From an uncultured Akkermansia sp. (GTDB taxonomy: Bacteria; Verrucomicrobiota; Verrucomicrobiia; Verrucomicrobiales; DEV007), in contig CAZLUZ010000018.1 in the NCBI GenBank assembly GCA_964562825.1, forward strand, positions 1 to 24,000: a DNA stretch of 24,000 nucleotides. Direction: 5' to 3'. Each line of letters begins with the position of its first letter. The first letter of the stretch is position 1. The translations under genes and the position numbers were made by a program. Of this stretch, positions 1,544-12,664 are shown one piece after another. The notes beneath the pieces were generated by a model. The model had not been told where the DNA came from, ran no database searches, and was given only the letters and a program-made list of their open reading frames with translations.

Positions 1544-3346
1544 TTATCTGTCCAGTCCATGGGCCTTGCGGATCGCATGGACCACGCCGGCGCCGAGGAA
1601 GCGATCGCCGACCCGCGGGGCGATCCTGGTCAGATCGACGATCATCAGTCCGTCGAGACAGCCGGAGAACTTGGCGTCGACGTTGAAACCGAGGTAGGTG
1701 GCGTGAAATTTGGTGTATTGGCGGAGGAGGATAGGCACGCCTTTCCCGTCCTGTTCCAGGCTGCCCACCGCCGCGTCGATCTGCTCGATGGTCTCCAGTC
1801 CCTCCGCGATTTCACCGAGGCGGTCCCGAGTCCGACTTGACGTCTCCCGATCCACCGACCGGCTCCCCGGCCGAACGAGGTGGGCGAAATCCGTGGAGAA
1901 AGCGTGTTTTTCCAGAAACTGCACCATGAGATTGCGGGAGACAGGCAGGTAGTTGCCGCTGATGCTGACCGCTCCGAAAGCGTAGCGGAAACGCGGGTTC
2001 CGGCGAAGAAACTCGCCGATTCCGAGGAAAAGCATGCCCAGCGAGAGGTAGCCTTTCTGGCATTCCTCGACCACGAAAGAGCGTCCCAACTCCACGGCGG
2101 GACCGCCCAGGCTGTGAAAAAACTCCCGCTTGTAGCGGAACAGACTGCGGGTGTAGAGGCCCTGCACGCCGCGCCGCTCCGTGATCTCGTCGGATGGCCC
2201 CAGGCGATAGGCCCCGCCGATCTGTCTCGTCTCCCCATTCCACAGGAAGAGGTGCTGGTACCATTGATCGTACTCGTCGAGGTCGATGGCCTGTCCCGTT
2301 CCCTCGCCCACACTGCGGAAGGTCTTCTCCCGCAGTCTGCCGATCTCGCGGAGCACCCGGGGAATTTCGGCGGCCCCCGCGATGAAGCACCGCCAGGCGC
2401 CGCGGGTCAACAGGAGACGATCTTCTGGCAGAGCGGCGATTTCGACCTCCAACCCGTCGGGTTCGACAGGAAGGACAAGCGGTTCGAGCTCCGCCGGGCT
2501 CAGCTTCTTTCCCTCGCGGGTGACCTGCCAGCGTTTCTCCCGCGAAGCGGTGCCGAGAAGTTCCACGTGCCGCTGAACGAACGCGGCCCCTTTTTCGTAA
2601 TCGGCACGCGGGATGCGCCGTGCCGGAATCGGTCGACCGATCTCGATCCGGATGGTCCGGCCGCTCAGCCTTCGGAATTCGCGAAGCAACTGGGCGGTGC
2701 GCAGCAGGGGATGAACCAGTCCCGCGGCATGGAAAAAGACACTGTTGCGTCCCTCGAAATGAACCGGAACCACATCGGCCCCGCTTTTCGCCACCATCTG
2801 GATGAGGTGCTTCGACCACGCCTTTTCCCTGATCCGGCGCTCGGCGAAAGAGAAATGAGCCACTTCTCCGGCGGGAAAGAGACCGATGAGTCCGCCCGAT
2901 TGGAGATGAGCCAGCGCATCGCGCAGGCCGGCGATATTCCTCCGCGCTGCGCCCGCGCCGCCGAAGGGGTCAACGGGAATGAGGATATCCCGGGCCTCCG
3001 GCATGGCGGCGATGAGGGAGTTGCCCAGGAGCCGGGCATCGGAACGCCTGCGCAGCAGGACCTCCGCAAGAATGAGCGCGTCCGCGACCCCGAAGGGATG
3101 ATTGGAGACCACGATGACCGGTCCCTTCGCGGGAATTCGGGCCAGGGCGTCCTCCGTGACCTCGTAGTGGATGCCGAGGTGCGCCAGGCTGTCGGCGAGG
3201 AAAGCTCCTCCCTCCGTGTCATGATTTTCCCGGACCTCCCGGTAGCTTTTGTTAAACCAATCGAAGGCGAGCCACCGGGCCACCGGGCGCACCAGGAAGT
3301 CGGGCATTCGGCTGCCGAGGACGGCGTTTTCGTCAATCGGATTCAT
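1544..3346 (-). CDS. OlsF-like bifunctional lipid acyltransferase: N-terminal PlsC/LPLAT-type O-acyltransferase domain plus C-terminal OlsB-like GNAT N-acyltransferase domain
   Basis: HX4D acyltransferase motif NHPFGVAD (nt 3080-3103) and a FPAGEV block. The C-terminal half has OlsB/hemolysin-like GNAT signatures (DLDEYDQWYQHLFLWN, IGGAYRLG, ELGRSFV). Start is set at ATG 3346 (MNPIDEN...), which forms an ATGA overlap with the upstream stop. The track start at 3472 would overlap the upstream gene by about 130 nt. The amino-acid substrate cannot be read from the sequence. Confidence 0.7.
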   Translation of the reverse strand: MNPIDENAVLGSRMPDFLVRPVARWLAFDWFNKSYREVRENHDTEGGAFLADSLAHLGIHYEVTEDALARIPAKGPVIVVSNHPFGVADALILAEVLLRRRSDARLLGNSLIAAMPEARDILIPVDPFGGAGAARRNIAGLRDALAHLQSGGLIGLFPAGEVAHFSFAERRIREKAWSKHLIQMVAKSGADVVPVHFEGRNSVFFHAAGLVHPLLRTAQLLREFRRLSGRTIRIEIGRPIPARRIPRADYEKGAAFVQRHVELLGTASREKRWQVTREGKKLSPAELEPLVLPVEPDGLEVEIAALPEDRLLLTRGAWRCFIAGAAEIPRVLREIGRLREKTFRSVGEGTGQAIDLDEYDQWYQHLFLWNGETRQIGGAYRLGPSDEITERRGVQGLYTRSLFRYKREFFHSLGGPAVELGRSFVVEECQKGYLSLGMLFLGIGEFLRRNPRFRYAFGAVSISGNYLPVSRNLMVQFLEKHAFSTDFAHLVRPGSRSVDRETSSRTRDRLGEIAEGLETIEQIDAAVGSLEQDGKGVPILLRQYTKFHATYLGFNVDAKFSGCLDGLMIVDLTRIAPRVGDRFLGAGVVHAIRKAHGLDR

Positions 3347-5877
3347 CGAAGAGGGGCTTCGAAGCGTTTGGCGGCCTGATAAGCCTTGATGTTGCCCCAG
3401 AGATCGAGAAAGGAGGGCTCCGGGCAGCCCCGGGCGCGATTCTTCGCCCCGATCTCGTAACAGAGTTCCCATTGCCGGCGCAGGATGGCGAGAGCCTGCG
3501 AAAAGGTGTGGTCCGGATCGTAGATCGCGGTGGCTTCCGAGGTCACCCCGTTGAGTTCCAGGATAAGGATGCCGCGACCGGCCCGGAGTTCCTCCTCAGA
3601 GGGAGCTTTCAGATCAAACCGGCCGAAGTGAAATCCGGCGAAAGAGCGCGCGATCCGGTCGATTTCCCGGGTCAGGCGGGGGGTGATCAGGTCATCTCCC
3701 GAGAGAAAAAGCGCACCGCGGGAATGCGTTCCCAGCCGACTCAGGAGCAATCTCTCTCCCTGGGCGGGAACGGTCCCCAGGTGCTGCCGGAACTGGCGAA
3801 GAAAAAAATCGGCCATGAGACGGGCCCGCGGATGGGACAGGATGAGTTCCTCGATCGTGCTCCTGCCATCTCCCACCACGGAGACCGATTTCTTTCTCGT
3901 GATGGAAAAGATGCGGCCCTCGGCGTCCTCCGGGTGCCGGTAGTAGAAGACTCCGAACTCGGGACCCTCGACATACTGCTGGGCGACGACGGGCTCGGTC
4001 GCACCGGAAACGGCGAAGTATTCCTCCACCTCGCGGTCGCTATGGACGATGGCCACGCCCTTTCCCCGTTCCCCGCAAACGGGTTTGAGCACGATCGGAT
4101 AGCGCGGGTCGGAAATACGGTGCATAAATTCTTTCACCTCCGCGGCGGACGACACCAGGGCGAACGCCGGCAGGTTGCCGCTCTCCCGCAGAGCCTCCAG
4201 GCTGATTCGTTTCGGTTCGTGGGCGAAGCCTCCGCAGGGGAGAGCCGGATTCGCCGCCGCGAACACCGTGGCCGAGCGGTGCCGCAGGGCGAGAAACACC
4301 GCGTGGGGCAGCAAGGCCAGGTAGAGAATCCAGGCGGGCCAGAACTCCCATCGGGTCCGTCGATCCCAGCGTGCGGCGAAAAGCCGTCTCTGCCGCGGGT
4401 CGGAGAGGATCGATACCCCACGCACCACGAGGAGGAGCGCCCCGACGAGACCGAGCAGACCCACGATAATGTAGTTCTCGTGGTCCTCGAACCAGGGCAG
4501 GAACACGTGTCCGAAGACGGCCGAAAGCCCCACCAGGATCGGTGTCCAGATGGCGGCGGCGAGGAGAAACCAGAAGAGGAACTTTTTCAGGCAGACCCCG
4601 GCGGCACCCATTCCCACGTAGACGGGAAGTCGCGAACCCGGGATGAAGCGGGTGGCGATGATGACCTTGGCCCCGTTGGCGTCGAGCCATCGGCGACCGG
4701 AATCGATCTTGTCCTTTGGGGCGATCCAACGCAGGGGGGCGCGTTCCAGGGCGCGCGGACCGAGCCATTTTCCGAGGAGGAAAAGAGTGATATCTCCCAG
4801 AAAGATCCCCGCGAGGCAGCCGGCCACGGCGGTGGCGAAGTGGAGAACGCCCCGGGACGTCAGCAGACCGCCCGAAATGCAGGCGAGGTCCTCGCTGGCC
4901 AAGGTCGCGATGCCGAGGAGCAACATGGTCGCCACTGCCCCGGCGGGCGATCCGTCGAGTCGCCTCAATTCCGCGGGCCTTTCCGCATCCACCACCCGCG
5001 AAAGCGTCGCTCCGCTGCGCCGGGGACCCGGTTCCCGAGCAAATCGGGCGATCGGGGCGGCAACTTCCGCGGGGCGCCGCATCAGATCGATGTGATTTCC
5101 TCCCTCGATCCAGACCAGCTGACTCTGGGGAACGATGCGGTGGTGCTCTCGTGCGGCCGATCCGGGCACGAGACGGTCGTGTTCTCCTTGGATGATCAGG
5201 GTGGGTCCGGTCCAGGTCTCGAGCAGGCTCCGCAGGGGGCGTTGATCGGTCTCGTAGAAGTTTCGCGCGTAGTTCCGGTTGAGCATCGCGCTGTCCCACC
5301 ATCCGAAATGGGGAACGCCTTCCTGGATGAGGGTGATCGCGGCGAGTTGAAGGCCGTGGATAGCGTGGTTGAGCACATAGTCGCCCAGCAGTTCGTGTTC
5401 CTGGACCCCGATGGAGGCGAGCAGGACCAGACCGGAGATCCGCTCGGGAGCCAGGTGGGCCAGATGGATGGCCACGCCTCCCCCCATGGAGTAGCCCACC
5501 GGAATCACGTTCTCCAGGTCCCTTTGTCGGAGCCATTTGGCGAGGTAATGGGCATGCGCCTCGATGGATAGATCCTCGACCCGTTGCTCCGATCGCCCGA
5601 AGCCGGGCAGATCGGGGATCAGGAGGGGAAACTCCCCTTCCAGTTGCGCGGCGAGGGGCGCGAAGATGCCCGGCATGGTCGGGCTCCCGTGAATGAGCAG
5701 CAGGGTGGGGCCTTCGGCGGCTCCCGATTCGCGAAAGGCCAGCCTGTCGCCCAGCACGGTGGTGGCTTCCTGCCCCGGTAGCGGACCCGGAGCATCCTGG
5801 ACCTGCCGGTAGACGTGGGAGAGTGCCAGCAGAATCACGTAGACGAGAAGGATCACCCTTTTCCAGCGGCCTTTCAT
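3343..5877 (-). CDS. Triple-fusion membrane protein: N-terminal TM anchor + alpha/beta hydrolase domain, central DedA/VTT (SNARE-associated) membrane domain, C-terminal ATP-grasp ligase domain (844 aa)
   Basis: Hydrolase: LLLIHGSPT, nucleophile elbow GYSMGGG (Ser codon 5488-5490), later GEHDRLVP and GGNHIDL as candidate Asp/His. DedA: LGDITLFLLGKWLG and VIIATRFIPGSRLPVYVGMGAAG with flanking hydrophobic helices. ATP-grasp: PIVLKPVCGERGKGVAIV, VVAQQYVEGPEFGVFYY, ILELNGVTSEATAIYD. Start is set at ATG 5877 (MKGRWKRVILLVYVILLAL...), in an ATGA overlap with the upstream stop. The 109-aa N-terminal extension in the track is Arg/Pro/Gly-rich and overlaps the upstream gene. Confidence 0.75.
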   Translation of the reverse strand: MKGRWKRVILLVYVILLALSHVYRQVQDAPGPLPGQEATTVLGDRLAFRESGAAEGPTLLLIHGSPTMPGIFAPLAAQLEGEFPLLIPDLPGFGRSEQRVEDLSIEAHAHYLAKWLRQRDLENVIPVGYSMGGGVAIHLAHLAPERISGLVLLASIGVQEHELLGDYVLNHAIHGLQLAAITLIQEGVPHFGWWDSAMLNRNYARNFYETDQRPLRSLLETWTGPTLIIQGEHDRLVPGSAAREHHRIVPQSQLVWIEGGNHIDLMRRPAEVAAPIARFAREPGPRRSGATLSRVVDAERPAELRRLDGSPAGAVATMLLLGIATLASEDLACISGGLLTSRGVLHFATAVAGCLAGIFLGDITLFLLGKWLGPRALERAPLRWIAPKDKIDSGRRWLDANGAKVIIATRFIPGSRLPVYVGMGAAGVCLKKFLFWFLLAAAIWTPILVGLSAVFGHVFLPWFEDHENYIIVGLLGLVGALLLVVRGVSILSDPRQRRLFAARWDRRTRWEFWPAWILYLALLPHAVFLALRHRSATVFAAANPALPCGGFAHEPKRISLEALRESGNLPAFALVSSAAEVKEFMHRISDPRYPIVLKPVCGERGKGVAIVHSDREVEEYFAVSGATEPVVAQQYVEGPEFGVFYYRHPEDAEGRIFSITRKKSVSVVGDGRSTIEELILSHPRARLMADFFLRQFRQHLGTVPAQGERLLLSRLGTHSRGALFLSGDDLITPRLTREIDRIARSFAGFHFGRFDLKAPSEEELRAGRGILILELNGVTSEATAIYDPDHTFSQALAILRRQWELCYEIGAKNRARGCPEPSFLDLWGNIKAYQAAKRFEAPLR

Positions 5878-6605
5878 GGCCTGGAGGAGGGAAAAGGAGA
5901 CTTCACCCCCAGCCGGGTCGTCGCCCCCCACGCCCAGTCCGGTGCCGTGGCGTAGGAATAGGCGGCGCGATTTCCCCGCCCGATTTTGATCCGGCTGAGG
6001 CTCACGGTATGCGCGTCCTCCCGGGACATGATGGTGGAGAAAGCGGAATGGCTGGCATCGAACCAGCGATGGAAGGACTCGCCACCACCGGTTTGGCGAT
6101 AGGCGTCGCGACGCGCGGCCGTCACCTCGGCGGTCTCGAAAGACGAAGTTGTCAGGGGTAGCTCGGCCGGGCGCCGTTGGAGCTGGCCAGCATCCCACCG
6201 CCACAGGCCGGCTGTCCGGGAGTTCAGTGCCACAAAAAGAAAGGGTCGGAACCGTCCTTTCTCCACCCTATCCGCGAGCCAATCGCCCGAGGCTTCGGGG
6301 TCCGCCAGCAAGGATGCGGCCTCCACGACGAGTCTGCCGCGGCTGGTGTAATCTCGTCCATCGGGATCGGGGAGAGGAGAACCGCTGTAGTGGTTGAGCA
6401 GGGCAAAGCAGGTTCCCGCCTCGTTCACCGCCAGCCAGGAGCCTCCGCCTTCGGGGTCAATGCAGGAGATCCAGCGGAAGTCACCATCCGGCCGTTGCTG
6501 GACGAGGGGACCGGTGGCCGCGGCACGCGACCTCGATTCGTCTCGGTTGAACCAGATGGTGAGAGTTTCCCCGGTCCGGGACCGTTGCCAGCTCATGGTG
6601 CACAT
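5874..6605 (-). CDS. NRDE family protein (TANGO2-like, Ntn-hydrolase-like fold with N-terminal Met-Cys)
   Basis: Begins MCT..., carries the eponymous motif WFNRDESRSR, then GGGSWLAVNEAGTCFALLNHY. This follows the pattern MC...NRDE..R...GG(T/S)WL......L(T/L)N of the TANGO2/NRDE family. The stop overlaps the next start (ATGA at 5874-5877). Confidence 0.85.
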   Translation of the reverse strand: MCTMSWQRSRTGETLTIWFNRDESRSRAAATGPLVQQRPDGDFRWISCIDPEGGGSWLAVNEAGTCFALLNHYSGSPLPDPDGRDYTSRGRLVVEAASLLADPEASGDWLADRVEKGRFRPFLFVALNSRTAGLWRWDAGQLQRRPAELPLTTSSFETAEVTAARRDAYRQTGGGESFHRWFDASHSAFSTIMSREDAHTVSLSRIKIGRGNRAAYSYATAPDWAWGATTRLGVKSPFPSSRP

Positions 6606-6638
6606 CGCGTTGCTCCGGGATCGTTCGGCGACCGCCGT

Positions 6639-7181
6639 TCAGGCGGACAAGGACTGCCGCTGCGCCGTTTCTCTCCGGAACTGAACCGTGGAAGGAGCGA
6701 GTCCGAACTCCTCATCGAGGACGATTCCCTCGCGCCGGCACATGATTGCGAGGATGGCGTAGTGATGCACCGCGTGGCTGAGGACGAACTGGAGTTCGCG
6801 CCCGATGGAGGAGTCCTGCCATTCGTCGGGATCATCCGAGGAAGCGTTGGACCGAACCCGGCAACGCATTCCGGGATCGATCCGGAGGCGGAGATCCTCG
6901 AGTAGTGCGATGGTTTCGTCGAAAGCTGCGATGGCGGCGACCAGCTTCGTCTCCACCACGATATCGCGTTCCCGGGCGTCGTAGTCGACGAGGTAGGGCG
7001 CCTCCATACCGGCGACAAGCCTCTGGTAGTGTTCGATGATGTGGCGGCAGTGGCCGCCGAAGGAGGCGCCGAGGAACTCGGCAGAGACGTGCGCGTACCG
7101 AGCTTGATCGATCCTCCGGAGCAGGGCCGAGGCCTGACCGAGACAGACGATGTTTGCCGCAAACAAATCGGGTCGGTTCAT
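6639..7181 (-). CDS. DinB-like (DinB_2 / four-helix-bundle metal-binding superfamily) protein
   Basis: About 180 aa with the His pattern of DinB-type bundles (GGHCRHIIEHYQ near the N-terminus, LSHAVHHYAILAIM near the C-terminus). Start is set at ATG 7181 (MNRPDLF...). It lies 33 nt upstream of the NRDE gene on the same strand. The family call is by eye only. Confidence 0.5.
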   Translation of the reverse strand: MNRPDLFAANIVCLGQASALLRRIDQARYAHVSAEFLGASFGGHCRHIIEHYQRLVAGMEAPYLVDYDARERDIVVETKLVAAIAAFDETIALLEDLRLRIDPGMRCRVRSNASSDDPDEWQDSSIGRELQFVLSHAVHHYAILAIMCRREGIVLDEEFGLAPSTVQFRRETAQRQSLSA

Positions 7182-7264: not shown

Positions 7265-8044
7265 TCAGGGCAGATCGTCGATGCGCCGGATCCCCGTTTC
7301 TGGGTCGGTGGCGACGAATAGCAGGCTGCCACATCGGCTCACCTTTCCCGTCACCTCAACCGGTTCTGCGACGAGGTCCAGAATCTGTTCGTTGATCGCC
7401 TCGCCGTTGACGCCCGTCATGATGAGCTTGGTCACGCTGCCATCCTCGCCGCGGAGCAGCAGCATGGGCGGGACACCTCCCTTGATGCAGTGGATGGCGC
7501 AGGCGCGGTGCGGTTTGAGCACCCCGGGATTCATCACGCCGAGGTAGCATTTGCTGTCCACGATCTCGCCTCTGAGGGTCTGGGACCCGAAGTCCACGAA
7601 TTCGCCCAGACTGACATCGGCGGGCCGGGTCGATTTCTGCACCGATCCGTCGATCACCTCCAGCATGGCGTTTCCCCCATCGTGGATCAGCGTGCCTCTG
7701 AGGTCCACCGCCTCCAGGTGAAAGGTCTCCGCCACCTCGGGGTCGAAGCCGTACTTCAGCGGACGCACCAGGAGGAACACCGACTGTTGGCTATCGGGTT
7801 CCGGCTCCGGGGTGAGGAGCATGGGGACCGGGTTGGCGACGAGGACCCCGGAAAATTCGCGGACGTTGCCGAACTGGAACTGTCCGATGCCGAGAGTGCT
7901 CTGAAAGAGCGGGAATACCGCCGCGAGAAGCATTGCCGCCCCGAGAATGAGGCCGGTGCGCAGCCGGAGGAAGCCGGCGATACCCGGAGGGGGCGTTTTC
8001 TCCCAACCGATGAAAAATTCGGGTGCGTTCTTTTCTGTGCTCAT
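7265..8044 (-). CDS. Hypothetical membrane-anchored protein with an extracytoplasmic domain carrying a C-x16-C-x3-C motif
   Basis: The N-terminus has RLR followed by one hydrophobic helix (GLILGAAMLLAAVFPLF). The C-terminal part contains SKCYLGVMNPGVLKPHRACAIHCIKGGVPP and a fourth Cys (VSRCGS). No family was recognised. The start ATG 8044 overlaps the stop of the Rieske/FRD gene (ATGA at 8041-8044). Codon third positions are GC-rich. Confidence 0.6.
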   Translation of the reverse strand: MSTEKNAPEFFIGWEKTPPPGIAGFLRLRTGLILGAAMLLAAVFPLFQSTLGIGQFQFGNVREFSGVLVANPVPMLLTPEPEPDSQQSVFLLVRPLKYGFDPEVAETFHLEAVDLRGTLIHDGGNAMLEVIDGSVQKSTRPADVSLGEFVDFGSQTLRGEIVDSKCYLGVMNPGVLKPHRACAIHCIKGGVPPMLLLRGEDGSVTKLIMTGVNGEAINEQILDLVAEPVEVTGKVSRCGSLLFVATDPETGIRRIDDLP

Positions 8045-9075
8045 GAGATGCTTGCCGGTTCAATGGGGGTGCCCGCCGGATGCGGGGTGGGGTGGACATA
8101 AACCGTACCATTGGCGATACGGACGTCGAAAGTGGGAATTTTTTCGGTGAAAGGTGCCGGGGACGTTCCATCCTCGGGGCGATACTGATAACCATGCCAG
8201 GGGCAGGTCAGGCATCCGTGAATGAATTTTCCCTCGGCGAGGGGGCCATTCTGGTGCTGACAGACTCCCGAGACAGCCGAGACCTTTCCCTCGTACTTCA
8301 CCACCGCCACCTTCTCCCCGCCGAGCACCACTCCGTGGGCCGCGTTTTCCGGGATGTCGGCCACCGCGCAGACTTCGACGAATCCGTCCTCGGTGGGATG
8401 ATTCGCGAGGGGACGGTCCCGGGGAAACTCGCGAAATCCGGCGGTGAGGTGGAGGCCGGCGATGGCGAGGAAGCCCGCGATGAGCAGGCCGGTGTAGAGG
8501 GGGTGCGTCTCGGACTGGAGCACCCCGAAAGCGACGTGAACGACCAGCAGCGCATAGGCCACATACACACCCATGTGCAGCGATTTCCACACCGGTGCGG
8601 TCAGGTTGGCCAGCCAGAAATCATGGCTCGTCGCCGCCATGGTGAAGAGGATGAGGAGGGCGAAAAAGCCAAAGGCCTGGAAGGGGAAGGCGCTCATGGT
8701 TGCGCCCGCATCCGTCGTGAAAATGGTCAGGATGGGGTTCGAGTCCGATCCGACGTGGTAGGTGATGACGGCAAGGGCGGAGTGAAAGAAAGCCAGGAGG
8801 AACATGGTCACCCCGAGGTGGCGCCGATTGTAGAGGATGGGCAGCCACCTGCGGTCCAGCCGAGCCAGGGGCCCCACCATGAGGATGAAGTGCAGGAGGA
8901 TGATCGCGCCCGAACCGAAGGCGCGGATCAGCATGATCTCTATGGTGGCGGAGGGACTGATCGCGAGACTGATTCCGGTGAAGAGGGCGACGTAGAGGAT
9001 GGCGGCGACAGCCAGCCAGAGATCGAAGCGCAGCTTGAAGGGATTCCATCCCACGGCTTTGTAGGAAACACTCAT
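8041..9075 (-). CDS. Ferric-reductase-like six-TM (heme b type) domain fused to a C-terminal Rieske [2Fe-2S] domain
   Basis: Six hydrophobic helices, with paired His in helices 3 and 5 (RRHLGVTMFLLAFFH; HMGVYVAYALLVVH), as in the FRD/NOX/MsrQ family. The C-terminus carries both Rieske boxes: CQHQNGPL (about 8241-8265) and CPWHGYQY (about 8190-8213). Confidence 0.8.
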   Translation of the reverse strand: MSVSYKAVGWNPFKLRFDLWLAVAAILYVALFTGISLAISPSATIEIMLIRAFGSGAIILLHFILMVGPLARLDRRWLPILYNRRHLGVTMFLLAFFHSALAVITYHVGSDSNPILTIFTTDAGATMSAFPFQAFGFFALLILFTMAATSHDFWLANLTAPVWKSLHMGVYVAYALLVVHVAFGVLQSETHPLYTGLLIAGFLAIAGLHLTAGFREFPRDRPLANHPTEDGFVEVCAVADIPENAAHGVVLGGEKVAVVKYEGKVSAVSGVCQHQNGPLAEGKFIHGCLTCPWHGYQYRPEDGTSPAPFTEKIPTFDVRIANGTVYVHPTPHPAGTPIEPASIS

Positions 9076-9215
9076 GAGGGATCTTGAAGAGGGATGGGCA
9101 GATTCTGCGTGGGAAAGCGGGGCCGGTTCAGGATCGCGTAGCCGATCGCAAAGGCGATCACGATGGTGAGCACGAACCAGAGGGTGAGGTGTCTCTTGCG
9201 GTGGTAGCGTTGCAT
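9072..9215 (-). CDS. Small single-TM protein, 47 aa (not in the supplied ORF track)
   Basis: My own translation of the minus strand gives ATG at 9215 -> MQRYHRKRHLTLWFVLTIVIAFAIGYAILNRPRFPTQNLPIPLQDPS-stop. It has a basic N-terminus and one hydrophobic helix. It starts 4 nt after the stop of the 84-aa gene, and its TGA overlaps the ATG of the Rieske/FRD gene (ATGA at 9072-9075), so it exactly fills the gap. Confidence 0.45.
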   Translation of the reverse strand: MQRYHRKRHLTLWFVLTIVIAFAIGYAILNRPRFPTQNLPIPLQDPS

Positions 9216-9219
9216 GGGA

Positions 9220-9474
9220 TCAGGGTCTGGAATTCGCGATCCGACGGTGCCGAGACTTTTCCTCAGGGGGCGTTTCCCGGCTGACCCACCGTTTCAGGAG
9301 CAGAGGCCAGAAGATCGCCGCGCCGGGAATGATGATGAGTCGGAAGCTCCAGGTGCCCGACTTCGCCGATGGATCGATGGCGCCGGCTCCACCGAAGCAG
9401 GAGAAGACGATGGCGAAAAGCAAGCCGAGGAGCAGGTAGATGCCGAGGAGGGATAGAAAGATCTCAAGTAGCAT
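9220..9474 (-). CDS. Small two-TM membrane protein, 84 aa
   Basis: MLLEIFLSLLGIYLLLGLLFAIVFSCF... and ...FRLIIIPGAAIFWPLLLKRW form two hydrophobic helices. Start is set at ATG 9474, which overlaps the malic-enzyme 3' end by 11 nt. The longer track version (start 9600) would run about 135 nt into the malic enzyme gene. Confidence 0.55.
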   Translation of the reverse strand: MLLEIFLSLLGIYLLLGLLFAIVFSCFGGAGAIDPSAKSGTWSFRLIIIPGAAIFWPLLLKRWVSRETPPEEKSRHRRIANSRP

Positions 9475-10669
9475 GGTTCGAGGGAGTTTGCCCGCCATCG
9501 CCACTGGCGGCCTGACAGACGGCTCGGGCCACGATGGGAGCGATGGTGGAATCGAGCGGGGAGGGGACAATCCGTTCCGGAGACGGTTCCGCCACCGCAT
9601 CGGCCAGCGCGCGGGCCGCGGCGATCTTCATCTCGGGCGTGATGCGCGGCGCCTGGGCGTCGAGCGCGCCCCGAAAGATTCCGGGGAAGGCGAGCACGTT
9701 GTTCACCTGATTGGGGAAATCGCTGCGTCCGGTGCCGAGCACCGCGGCACCCCCGGCCCTGGCTGCTTCGGGCATGATTTCGGGGATCGGGTTGGCCATC
9801 GCCAGGATGATGGAATCCGGGGCCATCCGGCGGATATCTTCGGTGCGGAGGATGTCGCCTACGCTGACTCCGACGAAGACGTCAGCTTCGTGAAGCACCT
9901 CCGAAAGACTGCCTTTGCGGTTTGATGGGTTGGTGTACCCGAGGAGGTCGCGCTTCCGGGGGTTCAGGTCTTCCCGGTCGCGGTGGATGGCGCCCCGGCT
10001 GTCGCAGATGATCACGTCCGCCACGGGTGTGCAGGTGTCCGCAGACTGGTCGATGCATCGGAGCAGTTTCGCGATGGCGGTTCCGGCCGCGCCTGCTCCG
10101 TTGATGACCACCCTCAGATTTTCCACGGGTTTGCCCACGACCCGAGCCGCGTTGAGCATGGCGGCGAGGAGCACAATAGCGGTGCCGTGCTGGTCGTCGT
10201 GGAAGACCGGGATGCCCAGATCCTGGAGTCTCTCCTCCACCTCGAAGCACCGGGGTGCCGAGATATCCTCCAGGTTGATTCCGCCGAACACCGGCGCGAT
10301 CCGGCGAACCGTATCCACGACCTCATCGGCGTCCTGGGTGTCGAGGCAGATGGGAAAAGCGTCGATGTTGGCGTATTGCTTGAAAAGCAGGGCCTTCCCC
10401 TCCATCACCGGAATAGCCGCGTAAGGTCCGATGTTGCCCAGGCCGAGAACGGCCGAACCGTCACTGACCACGGCGACGGCATTTCGCTTGATCGTCAGAT
10501 CGCGCACCTTTTCGGGATGTCTCGCGATCTCCTCACAGGGCCTCGCCACCCCAGGGGTGTAGGCGATGGAGAGATCGTCGATGGTTTCGACGGGAAGTTT
10601 CGGAGTCACCGAGATTTTGCCTCGGAGCTGTTCGTGAATGAGCAGGGAGCGTTCGCCAAAATCCATCAT
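9464..10669 (-). CDS. NAD(P)-dependent malic enzyme (short prokaryotic form, oxaloacetate-decarboxylating malate dehydrogenase)
   Basis: Family-typical blocks run throughout: LSIAYTPGVARPC, VVSDGSAVLGLGNIGPYAAIPVMEGKALLFK, FGGINLEDISAPRCFEVE, VFHDDQHGTAIV, INGAGAAGTAI, LAMANPIPEI, NNVLAFPGIFRGALD. Confidence 0.93.
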   Translation of the reverse strand: MMDFGERSLLIHEQLRGKISVTPKLPVETIDDLSIAYTPGVARPCEEIARHPEKVRDLTIKRNAVAVVSDGSAVLGLGNIGPYAAIPVMEGKALLFKQYANIDAFPICLDTQDADEVVDTVRRIAPVFGGINLEDISAPRCFEVEERLQDLGIPVFHDDQHGTAIVLLAAMLNAARVVGKPVENLRVVINGAGAAGTAIAKLLRCIDQSADTCTPVADVIICDSRGAIHRDREDLNPRKRDLLGYTNPSNRKGSLSEVLHEADVFVGVSVGDILRTEDIRRMAPDSIILAMANPIPEIMPEAARAGGAAVLGTGRSDFPNQVNNVLAFPGIFRGALDAQAPRITPEMKIAAARALADAVAEPSPERIVPSPLDSTIAPIVARAVCQAASGDGGQTPSNHAT

Positions 10670-10684
10670 CTACAGAGTGCAAGG

Positions 10685-12664
10685 TTACACGAGGAGAGCA
10701 TCTGTCATCACCTCGATGGTGGCGGGGCCGGGATAGTCCCGGCAGACGGCGAGCGCCTCATCCAGCTGCTGGCGTTCCGAGACTCGAATCCCTTTACCGC
10801 CGCAGAGATTCACGTAGTCCGCAAAGTTCGGATTGTGCAGCCCGGTCTTCCAGACCTCGAAGTGTCCCGCCCGCTGTTCTTTCGAAATTTTGCCCAATTC
10901 ACCGTTGTGCATGAGGATGTGGGTAATGTTCATCCCGTATTTCACCGCGGTGAGGACTTCCATCATGTATTGGGCGAACCCGCCATCCCCGGTCACCGCC
11001 CAGACGGGTCGTCCGGCATAAGCGGGATCGTCCTCCTGGGTGGCGGCCCACGCGCCCATCGCCGCCGGGTATCCGAACCCGATCGATCCCAGGTAACCGG
11101 ACATGAGGACCGCCTGCCGGTCGCTGCTCTCGAAGTAGCGCCCGAAGGAGTAAGTGTTGTTGCCCACGTCGACGGCGATGATGGCATCCTCCTGGCACTG
11201 ACGGGTCATCGCGTCGAACAGGGCGGCGGCACTGATCCCTTTACCGGAGTCGTCGGGGATGCGGCTGGCCTTTTCCTTTCTCCAGATTTCCCAGCGACGG
11301 GCTACCTCCTCGCGTATCCCGGGACGCGGCACCGCGTTGGGAAAACGTTGCCCGAGGATGTCCAGGGTCCGGCCGATCTCCCCGAGAACGGGCAGATCGA
11401 CGGAGTGGAACTTGCCCAGTTGCATGGGATCGAAATCGATCTGAATCGTCGGCATGTAGCTGGCGATGCCGGTGTGGTTGGAAAAGGATGCGCCGATGGC
11501 GATGATGAGGTCGCACTCATTCATGAACCAGCTGGCGATCGGTGTCCCCGACCGTCCCAGAACGCCACAACCCAGCGGATGCGAATCCGAGATCAGGCCT
11601 TTTCCCTTGAAGGTGGTGAGCACAGGAATTTCGAGTCTTTCGGCGAACCGGATGATGGACTCCATGTGAAATCGTGCTCCGTGCCCTACGATGATGATGG
11701 GCCGTTGCGCCTCTCGGATGCGGTTTTCCGCCGCGGCTATGCTGGCCTCCGACGGGGCCACCGAGAGGTCGGCGAGGCGTCCGTCGGGGTGGCCGGGCTT
11801 GCCCTCCGTATTCTCGATTTCCTGAACCTCATTGGGGAGCACGAGGGTCACCGGGTTCCGGGTGAGGAGCGCGTTCTTGAGAGCCAGCGACATCAGTTCG
11901 CCGTGGCGGGAATCCGCGTAGACGGTGTGGTTGAAGGCCGAGACATCCTCGAAAGCGTTGGCCAGGTCGATCTCCTGGAAAGCCCCCGGTCCGAGCACCT
12001 GGGTGTCGATCTGTCCCGACAGCGCGAGGAGTGGCGCCCGATCCACTTTCGCGTCGTAAAGGCCGGTCATCAGGTTGGTTGCTCCGGGGCCCGCGATGGA
12101 GAAACAGGCGGCCGGTCTGCCGGTCAGTTTGGCGTAGGCGGAGCAGGCAAAGGATGCGGCTCCCTCGTGCCGGATGCCGTAAAACCGAAGGTTGCCCTGC
12201 TCCTCCTGGACCCGCAGCGCATCGGCCATGCCCAGGTTGGAGTGGCCCACCATGCCGAAGACCTGCCTGACCCCCCAATTCACCATGGTCTCGGCGAGGA
12301 CATCCGAGTTGGTCCGAGCCCTCTCGGGTTCCGGTTCCAGACCGACATAGATGCCGTCCTCCCGCTCCTCGACAGGATAGGTGATGAGACGGTCGTCGTG
12401 CCCGCCGGGCGACTGACCGGTGAGAGGATCAAAATCCCAACCGTGCCAGGGACAACGCAGCCAGCAACGACCCTCCGCCCCATCCTCGATCGAACCCTCG
12501 CCGAGCGGACCACCCTGGTGGGGGCAGGCGTTATCGAGCGCGCCGTACCGGCCCTGGTATTTGGAAAGGGCTATGGTGCGGGTGCCCGCGGAGATGGTGG
12601 TCACCCGTCTCTCCTCCAATCCGGGAGGGTCGAGGACTTTGTGCCAGACGAGTGCTTCGCTCAT
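10685..12664 (-). CDS. Rieske [2Fe-2S] domain fused to a thiamine-pyrophosphate enzyme of the pyruvate oxidase / acetolactate synthase superfamily
   Basis: N-terminal Rieske boxes CPHQGGPL (about 12504-12536) and CPWHGWDF (about 12431-12470). A three-domain TPP enzyme follows: Pyr domain VFGMVGHSNLGMADAL...IRHEGAASFACSAYAKLTG...GPGATNL, a middle domain IIIVGHGARF...TTFKGKG, and PP domain GSIGFGYPAAMGA...VTGDGGFAQYMMEVLTAVKYGMNITHILMHNGELGKI. The substrate is not deducible by eye. Confidence 0.85.
   Translation of the reverse strand: MSEALVWHKVLDPPGLEERRVTTISAGTRTIALSKYQGRYGALDNACPHQGGPLGEGSIEDGAEGRCWLRCPWHGWDFDPLTGQSPGGHDDRLITYPVEEREDGIYVGLEPEPERARTNSDVLAETMVNWGVRQVFGMVGHSNLGMADALRVQEEQGNLRFYGIRHEGAASFACSAYAKLTGRPAACFSIAGPGATNLMTGLYDAKVDRAPLLALSGQIDTQVLGPGAFQEIDLANAFEDVSAFNHTVYADSRHGELMSLALKNALLTRNPVTLVLPNEVQEIENTEGKPGHPDGRLADLSVAPSEASIAAAENRIREAQRPIIIVGHGARFHMESIIRFAERLEIPVLTTFKGKGLISDSHPLGCGVLGRSGTPIASWFMNECDLIIAIGASFSNHTGIASYMPTIQIDFDPMQLGKFHSVDLPVLGEIGRTLDILGQRFPNAVPRPGIREEVARRWEIWRKEKASRIPDDSGKGISAAALFDAMTRQCQEDAIIAVDVGNNTYSFGRYFESSDRQAVLMSGYLGSIGFGYPAAMGAWAATQEDDPAYAGRPVWAVTGDGGFAQYMMEVLTAVKYGMNITHILMHNGELGKISKEQRAGHFEVWKTGLHNPNFADYVNLCGGKGIRVSERQQLDEALAVCRDYPGPATIEVMTDALLV

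Follow-up and report, generated by a model that had tools for sequence, protein, structure and literature searches.

We analysed a window of 24,000 nucleotides (positions 1 to 24,000 of contig CAZLUZ010000018.1, GenBank assembly GCA_964562825.1) from an uncultured Akkermansia sp., and in particular one gene of its minus strand. The uninterrupted open reading frame (ORF) of 344 codons at 8041-9075 encodes a protein, here called FRD::Rieske, in which a ferric-reductase domain (FRD) of the membrane is joined to a Rieske domain. Both parts are recognised far beyond chance in Pfam, residues 54-178 matching Ferric_reduct PF01794 (E = 6.5e-11; 42.8 bits against a gathering cut-off of 28) and residues 233-316 matching Rieske PF00355 (E = 2.7e-17; 62.9 bits against 20.3). 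The flavin adenine dinucleotide (FAD) and NADPH domains PF08022 and PF08030 were not found in the protein, and only Rieske families match after helix 6. The start codon overlaps the TGA of an upstream ORF of 47 codons, and its own TGA overlaps the ATG of the next gene downstream, P0121, in the form ATGA; a scan for operon-internal promoter or terminator signals saw none above shuffled controls. The positions of the features discussed are collected in Table 1.

Table 1. Features of the FRD::Rieske locus (window coordinates)
Feature	Position	Strand	Basis
FRD::Rieske gene (P0001, 344 aa)	8041..9075	(-)	stop-free ORF, Pfam domains
Six-helix MsrQ/STEAP-type ferric-reductase domain (predicted type), residues 1-216	8428..9075	(-)	hydropathy, AlphaFold2, fold matches
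R84-R85-H86, cytoplasmic start of helix 3; R84/R85 correspond to FMN-binding R77/R78 of MsrQ; H86 particular to the FRD::Rieske family	8818..8826	(-)	conservation, alignment, PMC12525009
His98, helix 3, predicted outer-haem ligand; aligns with MsrQ His91 and NOX2 His115	8782..8784	(-)	conservation, alignment, PMC3591440
His167, helix 5; aligns with MsrQ His151 (flavin-stacking in MsrQ, inner-haem ligand in NOX)	8575..8577	(-)	invariant, alignment
His180, helix 5, predicted outer-haem ligand; aligns with MsrQ His164	8536..8538	(-)	conservation, alignment
Rieske ferredoxin-type [2Fe-2S] domain, residues 230-335; predicted ligands C272/H274 (8254-8262) and C291/H294 (8194-8205)	8071..8388	(-)	Pfam, conservation, fold
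P0121 (259 aa), N-in membrane anchor and two OB-like barrels; motif at 7487-7549	7265..8044	(-)	synteny, conservation, AlphaFold2
47-aa single-helix ORF; stop overlaps FRD::Rieske start (ATGA)	9072..9215	(-)	ORF, locus comparison
84-aa two-helix membrane protein, conserved upstream cassette member	9220..9471	(-)	72/81 loci, motif
Malic enzyme (401 aa), lineage-specific insertion	9464..10669	(-)	family match; adjacent in 3/81 loci
Rieske::TPP (pyruvate-oxidase-like) enzyme, optional candidate donor	10685..12664	(-)	Pfam, NCBIfam, locus counts

Membrane and Rieske domains of FRD::Rieske

Family-averaged hydropathy places six helices at residues ~19-39, 47-68, 86-106, 131-150, 164-186 and 193-213, and the AlphaFold2 model calculated with 35 homologues (predicted local distance difference test, pLDDT, 90.2; predicted TM score, pTM, 0.82) agrees with them. 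Pfam, hydropathy and the model therefore bear out the two-part architecture of the original prediction, made from the sequence alone, of six hydrophobic helices of haem-binding type followed by a C-terminal Rieske domain. In a structure search with VIA-align the closest matches of the model are STEAP1 (Z 16.8, 193 residues), STEAP4 (Z 16.6) and the membrane domain of NOX5 (Z 16.4), followed by DUOX1, NOX5 and NOX2. At the sequence level, a profile of the transmembrane part has no match among PDB sequences at E ≤ 1, and a profile of the whole protein reaches STEAP2 at no better than E = 6e-4.

Ligand conservation was scored over 35 diverse FRD::Rieske homologues. Residues R84, R85, S150, W163 and H167 are invariant, each of H86, H98, H151, H180 and H209 occurs in 90% of the sequences or more, and a denser alignment of 31 sequences of the membrane part agrees on the conserved pocket and histidine residues. 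The histidine pairs expected in helices 3 and 5 are thus present (His86/His98 and His167/His180) and conserved, but they do not form the bis-haem motif of NOX: helix 3 carries H-x11-H instead of H-x13-H, helix 5 carries H-x12-H, and His86 lies two residues past the canonical inner-haem position, which is itself Arg84. Further conserved or invariant histidines lie within helices 2 and 6 (H62, H209) or just beyond the ends of helices 3 and 4 (H107, H151), and these four have no assigned counterpart in MsrQ, STEAP or NOX.

Escherichia coli MsrQ (MG1655) was aligned to the FRD::Rieske family profile by hhalign (E = 1.2e-5, 134 columns), which pairs R84/R85 with R77/R78, H98 with H91, H167 with His151 and H180 with His164, whilst S150 and W163 fall on the pocket serine (Ser135) and tryptophan (Trp147). 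In MsrQ, R77 and R78 are needed for binding of flavin mononucleotide (FMN; Carpentier et al. 2025, PMC12525009), the flavin is lined by His151, Trp147 and Ser135 in a model, the single haem is ligated by His91/His164, and the position of R77 is that of the inner-haem histidine of NOX and DUOX (PMC12525009). In YedZ and STEAP1, likewise, an arginine is conserved in place of the first of the four histidines, and the other three are kept (Zhang et al. 2013, PMC3591440). Judged by these alignments, the membrane domain is assigned to the three-His-plus-Arg type of YedZ/MsrQ and STEAP1, and not to the NOX type. Since Arg84 stands at the position of the first NOX histidine, and since all the MsrQ FMN-pocket residues are invariant in the FRD::Rieske family (R84, R85, S150, W163, H167), the domain probably holds one outer haem and an inner flavin rather than a wire of two haems, a question that bears on the evolution of FRD proteins. 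The proposal that the Rieske domain stands in for the usual flavin is for this reason not supported as it was written: the pocket for FMN is kept, so that the Rieske domain probably replaces the soluble partner reductase only, with a flavin between cluster and haem.

The Rieske ligands C272, H274, C291 and H294 (CxH...CxxH) are invariant among the homologues and lie in the boxes C-Q-H-Q-N-G-P and C-P-W-H-G-Y, without the extra (disulfide) cysteines of the bc1/b6f type. Because these cysteines are missing, the domain is assigned, from its sequence and from what is known of the family, to the low-potential ferredoxin kind. Its fold is that of the CarAc, NDO, BphF and TodB ferredoxins (TM 0.8-0.86, Z about 15, root mean square deviation about 2 Å, by Foldseek and VIA), which have the same CxH...CxxH ligands and no bc1-type disulfide; unlike these ferredoxins of dioxygenase systems, it is tethered to a membrane protein of haem type. 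The genome from which the window comes encodes four Rieske proteins only, namely FRD::Rieske, two Rieske-tagged enzymes described below (Rieske::TPP and Rieske::GltS-like) and a free ferredoxin of 118 aa, and no Rieske oxygenase was found in it, all four being of other kinds. The gene for the free ferredoxin (contig C162:9434-9691, L083:1456-1812) has neighbours without Pfam match, and its product could be another donor or shuttle for FRD::Rieske.

P0121 as constant partner, and the topology of the pair

The original prediction had suggested a search for the PF01794 plus PF00355 architecture and its neighbours, and homologue and locus searches revealed a widespread family with a constant partner gene. 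Locus counts were obtained by tblastn of the window proteins against 81 loci, 47 of which have full flanks, that is, at least 8 kb on both sides. P0121 lies directly downstream on the same strand in 77 of the 81 loci, the contigs of the other four ending at that point, and is adjacent in all 47 fully flanked loci. In a sample of 151 genomes from a second phylum, the full-length P0121 profile matches exactly the seven genomes that carry FRD::Rieske, always next to it. The constant partner of FRD::Rieske is thus P0121 and not Rieske::TPP, and P0121 is an obligate periplasmic partner, which the original prediction on the FRD::Rieske gene had omitted. An upstream gene for a protein of 84 aa, with a conserved PG..FWP.LL.RW motif, is found on the same strand in 72 of the 81 loci, and the conserved cassette comprises three to four genes, which encode the 84-aa protein, a small anchored protein, FRD::Rieske and P0121.

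The AlphaFold2 model of P0121 (pLDDT 91.6) consists of an anchor helix and two OB-like barrels. Its invariant residues are E160, D163, K165, C166, M171, H179, C182 and C186, which include the motif C-x12-H-x2-C-x3-C. Among 37 members of the P0121 family no Pfam match was obtained at or below 0.01 (the best has E = 0.013), P0121 itself reaching only DUF5818 (E = 0.032), and NCBIfam gives no match for it. Its matches in the ESM Atlas are 'hypothetical protein' clusters only, and a search for shorter relatives returned unnamed proteins only.

The second barrel also exists as standalone proteins, which keep C, H, C and C. Such standalone Cys-motif barrels (L087:5953-6360, L088 and L089) occur in genomes without FRD::Rieske. 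At one locus the gene lies between an FGE-sulfatase-like gene and a set for a ferredoxin, a multihaem cytochrome c and an MtrB/PioB porin; others adjoin a TlpA-like redoxin, a DsbH-type thioredoxin or a CsoR-type metal repressor, and a small thioredoxin and a pyridine-nucleotide disulfide oxidoreductase are also found beside standalone barrels, together with the CsoR-type repressor. The C-x3-C plus His of P0121 presumably represents a Sco-like arrangement and, because of this arrangement and of the gene context of the standalone barrels, our best guess is that P0121 carries a thiophilic-metal or thiol-redox site.

The cytoplasmic location of both termini of FRD::Rieske, and hence of its Rieske domain, which had been proposed from a Lys/Arg-rich N-terminus, is supported by four independent lines of evidence. 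The basic residues K6, K14 and R16 are indeed present at the N-terminus, and over the 35 homologues the mean number of Lys plus Arg on the inner side is 3.5 at the N-terminus, 4.4 in loop 2-3, 1.8 in loop 4-5 and 4.2 after helix 6, against 0.4, 0.9 and 0.7 in the outer loops 1-2, 3-4 and 5-6, respectively. Sec/Tat-targeted membrane Rieske proteins have been described, in which a Tat motif precedes the last helix (PMC5449189), whereas FRD::Rieske has no such motif: loop 5-6 is six residues long, no twin-arginine motif precedes helix 6, and the positive charges come after this helix. The third line comes from fusions, since 38 of the 150 best cluster representatives are proteins of 560-670 aa in which the six-helix domain, the Rieske domain, a seventh transmembrane helix (TM7) and a P0121 homologue follow in frame, the C-terminal part matching the protein of the downstream gene by BLASTP (3e-38 and 1e-30). 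A motif search located the junction in 20 fusions, with the hydrophobic TM7 at ~370-395 between Rieske domain and barrels, and the membrane must therefore separate the two. Finally, the standalone Cys-motif barrels, of ~130 aa, stand behind ordinary Sec signal peptides, so that this domain is extracytoplasmic. The structural alignments span model residues 11-340 (DUOX1, 234 aligned) and 9-332 (NOX5), and in the model, accordingly, the Rieske domain lies beneath the membrane part, at the place of the NOX dehydrogenase domain.

Candidate donors and the proposed electron path

A gene for a Rieske-tagged, pyruvate-oxidase-like enzyme of the thiamine pyrophosphate (TPP) type, Rieske::TPP, does exist upstream, as originally noted, and is separated from FRD::Rieske by the malic enzyme gene and the ORFs of 84 and 47 aa. 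Its product is closest to the pyruvate oxidase and PoxB models, yet falls below their cut-offs. Of the 81 loci, 11 have Rieske::TPP no more than 10 kb from FRD::Rieske, eight of these with the gene upstream on the same strand, and about 10 of 42 carrier genomes contain a full-length copy. In the two phylum samples, full-length Rieske::TPP occurs only in genomes with FRD::Rieske, namely G256 and that of the window. The second tagged enzyme, Rieske::GltS-like, is a fusion of a Rieske domain to a glutamate-synthase-like part (PF01645, FMN), which in the genome of the window is a protein of 538 aa encoded on another contig (C25:17635-19248, L086:1489-3105); in many other genomes its gene stands beside Rieske::TPP, the FRD::Rieske cassette or both. 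It adjoins FRD::Rieske in 14 of the 81 loci and is present in 17 of the 42 carriers, including every genome with Rieske::TPP and often beside it, and in G256 all four genes lie within 7 kb. One or other of the tagged enzymes is found within 10 kb in 18 of the 81 loci.

These counts make the two enzymes plausible as enriched donors that are optional in both directions. The idea that Rieske::TPP feeds the Rieske domain accordingly keeps its plausibility, the gene being enriched nearby, but as an obligate donor the enzyme is rejected by its presence in only 11 of 81 loci and about 10 of 42 carriers. A strict co-occurrence of Rieske::GltS-like and FRD::Rieske was likewise discarded: in the first phylum the former was found in 2/2 carriers and 0/119 other genomes, whereas in the second phylum 23 genomes have it alone. 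The malic enzyme, adjacent in only 3 of the 81 loci, was rejected as a conserved cassette member, and its position here only hints at pyruvate as the substrate of Rieske::TPP.

Two side observations concern the tagged enzymes. In a non-carrier of the same phylum (G104, C7:398307-401348), a TPP enzyme (59% identity) adjoins a GltS-like gene (48%), with matches that start at query residues 112 and 141, respectively, and leave the Rieske parts of both unmatched, which hints that the pair may predate its Rieske tags. In one carrier (G136:C3:160819-164409, the genome of L031), stop codons interrupt the frames of both Rieske::GltS-like and Rieske::TPP, which may be pseudogenes or assembly errors.

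We consider it rather probable that FRD::Rieske is the membrane core of an electron-export cassette, with a path from Rieske cluster to flavin, haem and P0121. The domains, the conserved ligands, the topology argument and the obligate synteny and fusions with P0121 are shown by the analysis, whereas we infer which cofactors are bound, which way the electrons flow, what donates them and what is finally reduced. The low-potential [2Fe-2S] domain would take single electrons from soluble donors in the cytoplasm, and its likely role as the entry point of an outward path agrees with the original prediction. The cluster would pass them to an inner cofactor site of the six-helix domain, probably a flavin held by R84, R85, S150, W163 and H167, from which they would reach one b haem near the outer face, held by His98/His180, and finally P0121, whose tandem barrels are anchored to the membrane and whose Cys3-His(-Met) site faces outward. 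Outward electron flow runs with the inside-negative membrane potential. Donors in this organism probably include Rieske::TPP, acting as a 2-oxoacid oxidase for which the adjacent malic enzyme could supply pyruvate, and a second candidate is the Rieske::GltS-like flavoenzyme, whose gene lies outside the window on another contig. As to the final substrate, our best guess, a tentative one that may well prove wrong, is that P0121 handles copper or another thiophilic metal, or else a thiol/disulfide. Equally tentative is the broader picture of a widespread export system, in which Rieske-plugged flavoenzymes of the cytoplasm, those for 2-oxoacids and others, would dock on a Rieske-tipped MsrQ/STEAP-like conduit and feed it, the conduit leading to a novel class of periplasmic Cys3-His(-Met) tandem-barrel proteins for redox or metal chemistry, possibly a STEAP-like pair of cupric or metal reductase and chaperone tied to aminolipid remodelling of the envelope.

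Several observations weigh against the export path as drawn here. Foldseek finds nothing for P0121 at E ≤ 0.001, so that no fold relative of known function is recognisable, and the wider VIA structure search returns generic OB barrels only (best Z 7.5). Both tagged enzymes are missing from 25 of the 42 carrier genomes and, in the second phylum, Rieske::GltS-like is present not only in six of the seven carriers but also in 23 of the 144 non-carriers. The aminolipid-type genes that follow the cassette in 29 of the 47 full loci are left unexplained. His86 together with His167 could still make a second haem site, and some of the flux could end in the quinone pool, given that the quinone bound by MsrQ may act as an electron acceptor (PMC12525009).

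The last two points each lead to an alternative. A NOX-like wire of two haems, with the inner haem held by His86/His167, the outer one by His98/His180, and the cluster reducing the inner haem without a flavin, is an unlikely arrangement but one to be taken seriously, since all four histidines are kept in at least 90% of the homologues, the rise between the two in helix 3 (12 residues) is near that in helix 5 (13 residues) and the transmembrane domain of NOX5 matches as well as STEAP (Z 16.4 vs 16.8). What counts against two haems is that the canonical first histidine is Arg84, as in YedZ and STEAP (PMC3591440; PMC12525009), that His86 follows two residues later, about 200 degrees round the helix, that the spacing H-x11-H differs from the H-x13-H of every known bis-haem FRD, and that every residue of the MsrQ FMN pocket is invariant in the family.

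An improbable alternative is that of a respiratory anchor, at which Rieske-tagged dehydrogenases dock and from which electrons exit through a bound quinone, as with PoxB or the haem-b anchors SdhCD, P0121 being structural or regulatory only. The tagged dehydrogenases are missing from most carrier genomes, and the invariant outward Cys3-His motif, together with the obligate synteny and the fusions of P0121, argues for the periplasmic domain as part of the chemistry; on the other hand, PoxB-type enzymes normally reduce quinone, MsrQ tightly binds ubiquinone or menaquinone able to accept electrons from its cofactors (PMC12525009), and Rieske-tagged flavoenzymes are enriched beside the cassette. 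Very improbable, finally, is a reversed or periplasmic arrangement, with the Rieske domain exported, or with electrons passing inward from a periplasmic donor through P0121 to low-potential, Rieske-dependent enzymes of the cytoplasm. The glutamate-synthase-type FMN domain is usually reductive, and from this knowledge of the family Rieske::GltS-like could be an acceptor, but the strong N-in/C-in charge bias without a Tat motif, and the TM7 fusions and signal-peptide barrels, according to which the barrel is external and the Rieske domain internal, speak against such an arrangement, and electrons that moved inward to a centre of about -150 mV would have to overcome both the redox gradient and the membrane potential.

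Relation to known systems, family spread and neighbouring genes

To our knowledge, no bacterial short-form FRD protein other than MsrQ has been characterised. FRD::Rieske appears to work like MsrQ, yet it is neither MsrQ nor NOX. With E. coli MsrQ (YedZ) it shares the six-helix FRD fold, the Arg-Arg pair at the start of helix 3, the Ser/Trp/His inner FMN pocket, one outer-haem His pair (H98/H180, corresponding to H91/H164), the N-in/C-in topology and, as proposed here, the transfer of electrons to a periplasmic partner from an adjacent gene (PMC12525009). It is not an equivalog, since it scores 38.8 bits on the MsrQ model NF003831 (cut-off 130). It also has a fused Rieske domain, whereas MsrQ relies on the soluble reductase Fre, and it differs by the extra conserved His86 and by two accompanying small membrane proteins. 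The partner of MsrQ is the molybdoenzyme MsrP, in contrast to the Cys3-His tandem-barrel protein P0121 found here, and PF00174 (MsrP-type molybdoenzyme) was not found in the genome of the window, which is 95% complete.

The highest structural scores are those of the STEAP metalloreductases (Z 16.8 and 16.6 over 193-201 residues), and STEAP1-4 share one haem and an inner flavin site, as predicted here, as well as an arginine at the position of the first histidine of NOX. Their substrates are extracellular Fe(III) and Cu(II), and STEAP2-4 are fed by an N-terminal F420-type NADPH domain, whereas FRD::Rieske would be fed by its C-terminal Rieske domain. STEAPs also have Gln where the FRD::Rieske family and MsrQ have the histidine of position 167, and no separate outer partner protein. 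NOX/DUOX and the bacterial SpNOX/long FRE proteins share the membrane fold (Z 14-16) and a cytoplasmic input domain after helix 6; unlike them, FRD::Rieske lacks the FAD/NADPH domains and H-x13-H in helix 3, and nothing points to oxygen reduction. The FRD::Rieske family may thus be viewed as an MsrQ-like conduit that is wired differently, with a built-in iron-sulfur input and a Cys/His output protein. Its characterisation would give a new route for cytoplasmic reducing power to the periplasm and would attach a function to the family of P0121, for which neither Pfam nor NCBIfam has a matching entry. The reason for which enzymes resembling pyruvate oxidase and glutamate synthase gained a Rieske domain would also become clear, and a link between envelope redox chemistry and aminolipid synthesis may emerge.

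FRD::Rieske has more than 8000 homologues. In a word-indexed search, in which 8000 candidates were scored, the top 120 homologues of FRD::Rieske (60-74% identity) all share both domains and are named just 'Rieske 2Fe-2S domain-containing protein' or similar. Representatives at 50% identity, searched exhaustively with HMMER, gave 213 clusters at E ≤ 1e-30, and more than 560 loci are found in species-representative genomes. The best 80 of these more than 560 loci belong to Verrucomicrobiota, Acidobacteriota, Gemmatimonadota, Balneolaceae, Saprospiraceae, Planctomycetota, Myxococcota, KSB1 and others, the cultured Fibrisoma montanum HYT19 being among the carriers. Identity is 50-70% across Verrucomicrobiota, Acidobacteriota, Gemmatimonadota, Bacteroidota-like lineages, Planctomycetota, Myxococcota and others. 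The distribution is patchy, with FRD::Rieske in two of the 121 genomes sampled from the window's own phylum and seven of the 151 from the second. Rieske was already listed among the extensions of bacterial FRD proteins ('M4') in the legend of Figure 3 of Zhang et al. 2013 (PLoS One 8:e58126; PMC3591440), where the same domain combination is catalogued, without topology, partner, cofactor assignment or function. Literature searches, including the years after the 2013 survey, found no functional study of an FRD-Rieske fusion.

The gene between the 84-aa protein and FRD::Rieske varies. In most lineages (29 loci) it encodes an anchored protein of ~170 aa, in place of which the window and five other loci have the single-helix ORF of 47 aa. 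The two share a basic N-terminus and a helix, and the shorter may be a truncated form without the outer domain.

Beyond P0121, the aminolipid-type set that accompanies the cassette comprises an OlsB-like GNAT or OlsF, TANGO2, DinB and a hydrolase-DedA-ATP-grasp protein. In the window it is found at 1544-7162 on the minus strand, after the cassette, as genes for an OlsF-like aminolipid synthase, a hydrolase-DedA(VTT)-ATP-grasp protein, TANGO2 and a DinB-like protein; in other phyla, too, related genes come after the cassette (29 of the 47 fully flanked loci). YHS-domain and small membrane proteins are encoded near the cassette in 20 of the 47 full loci.

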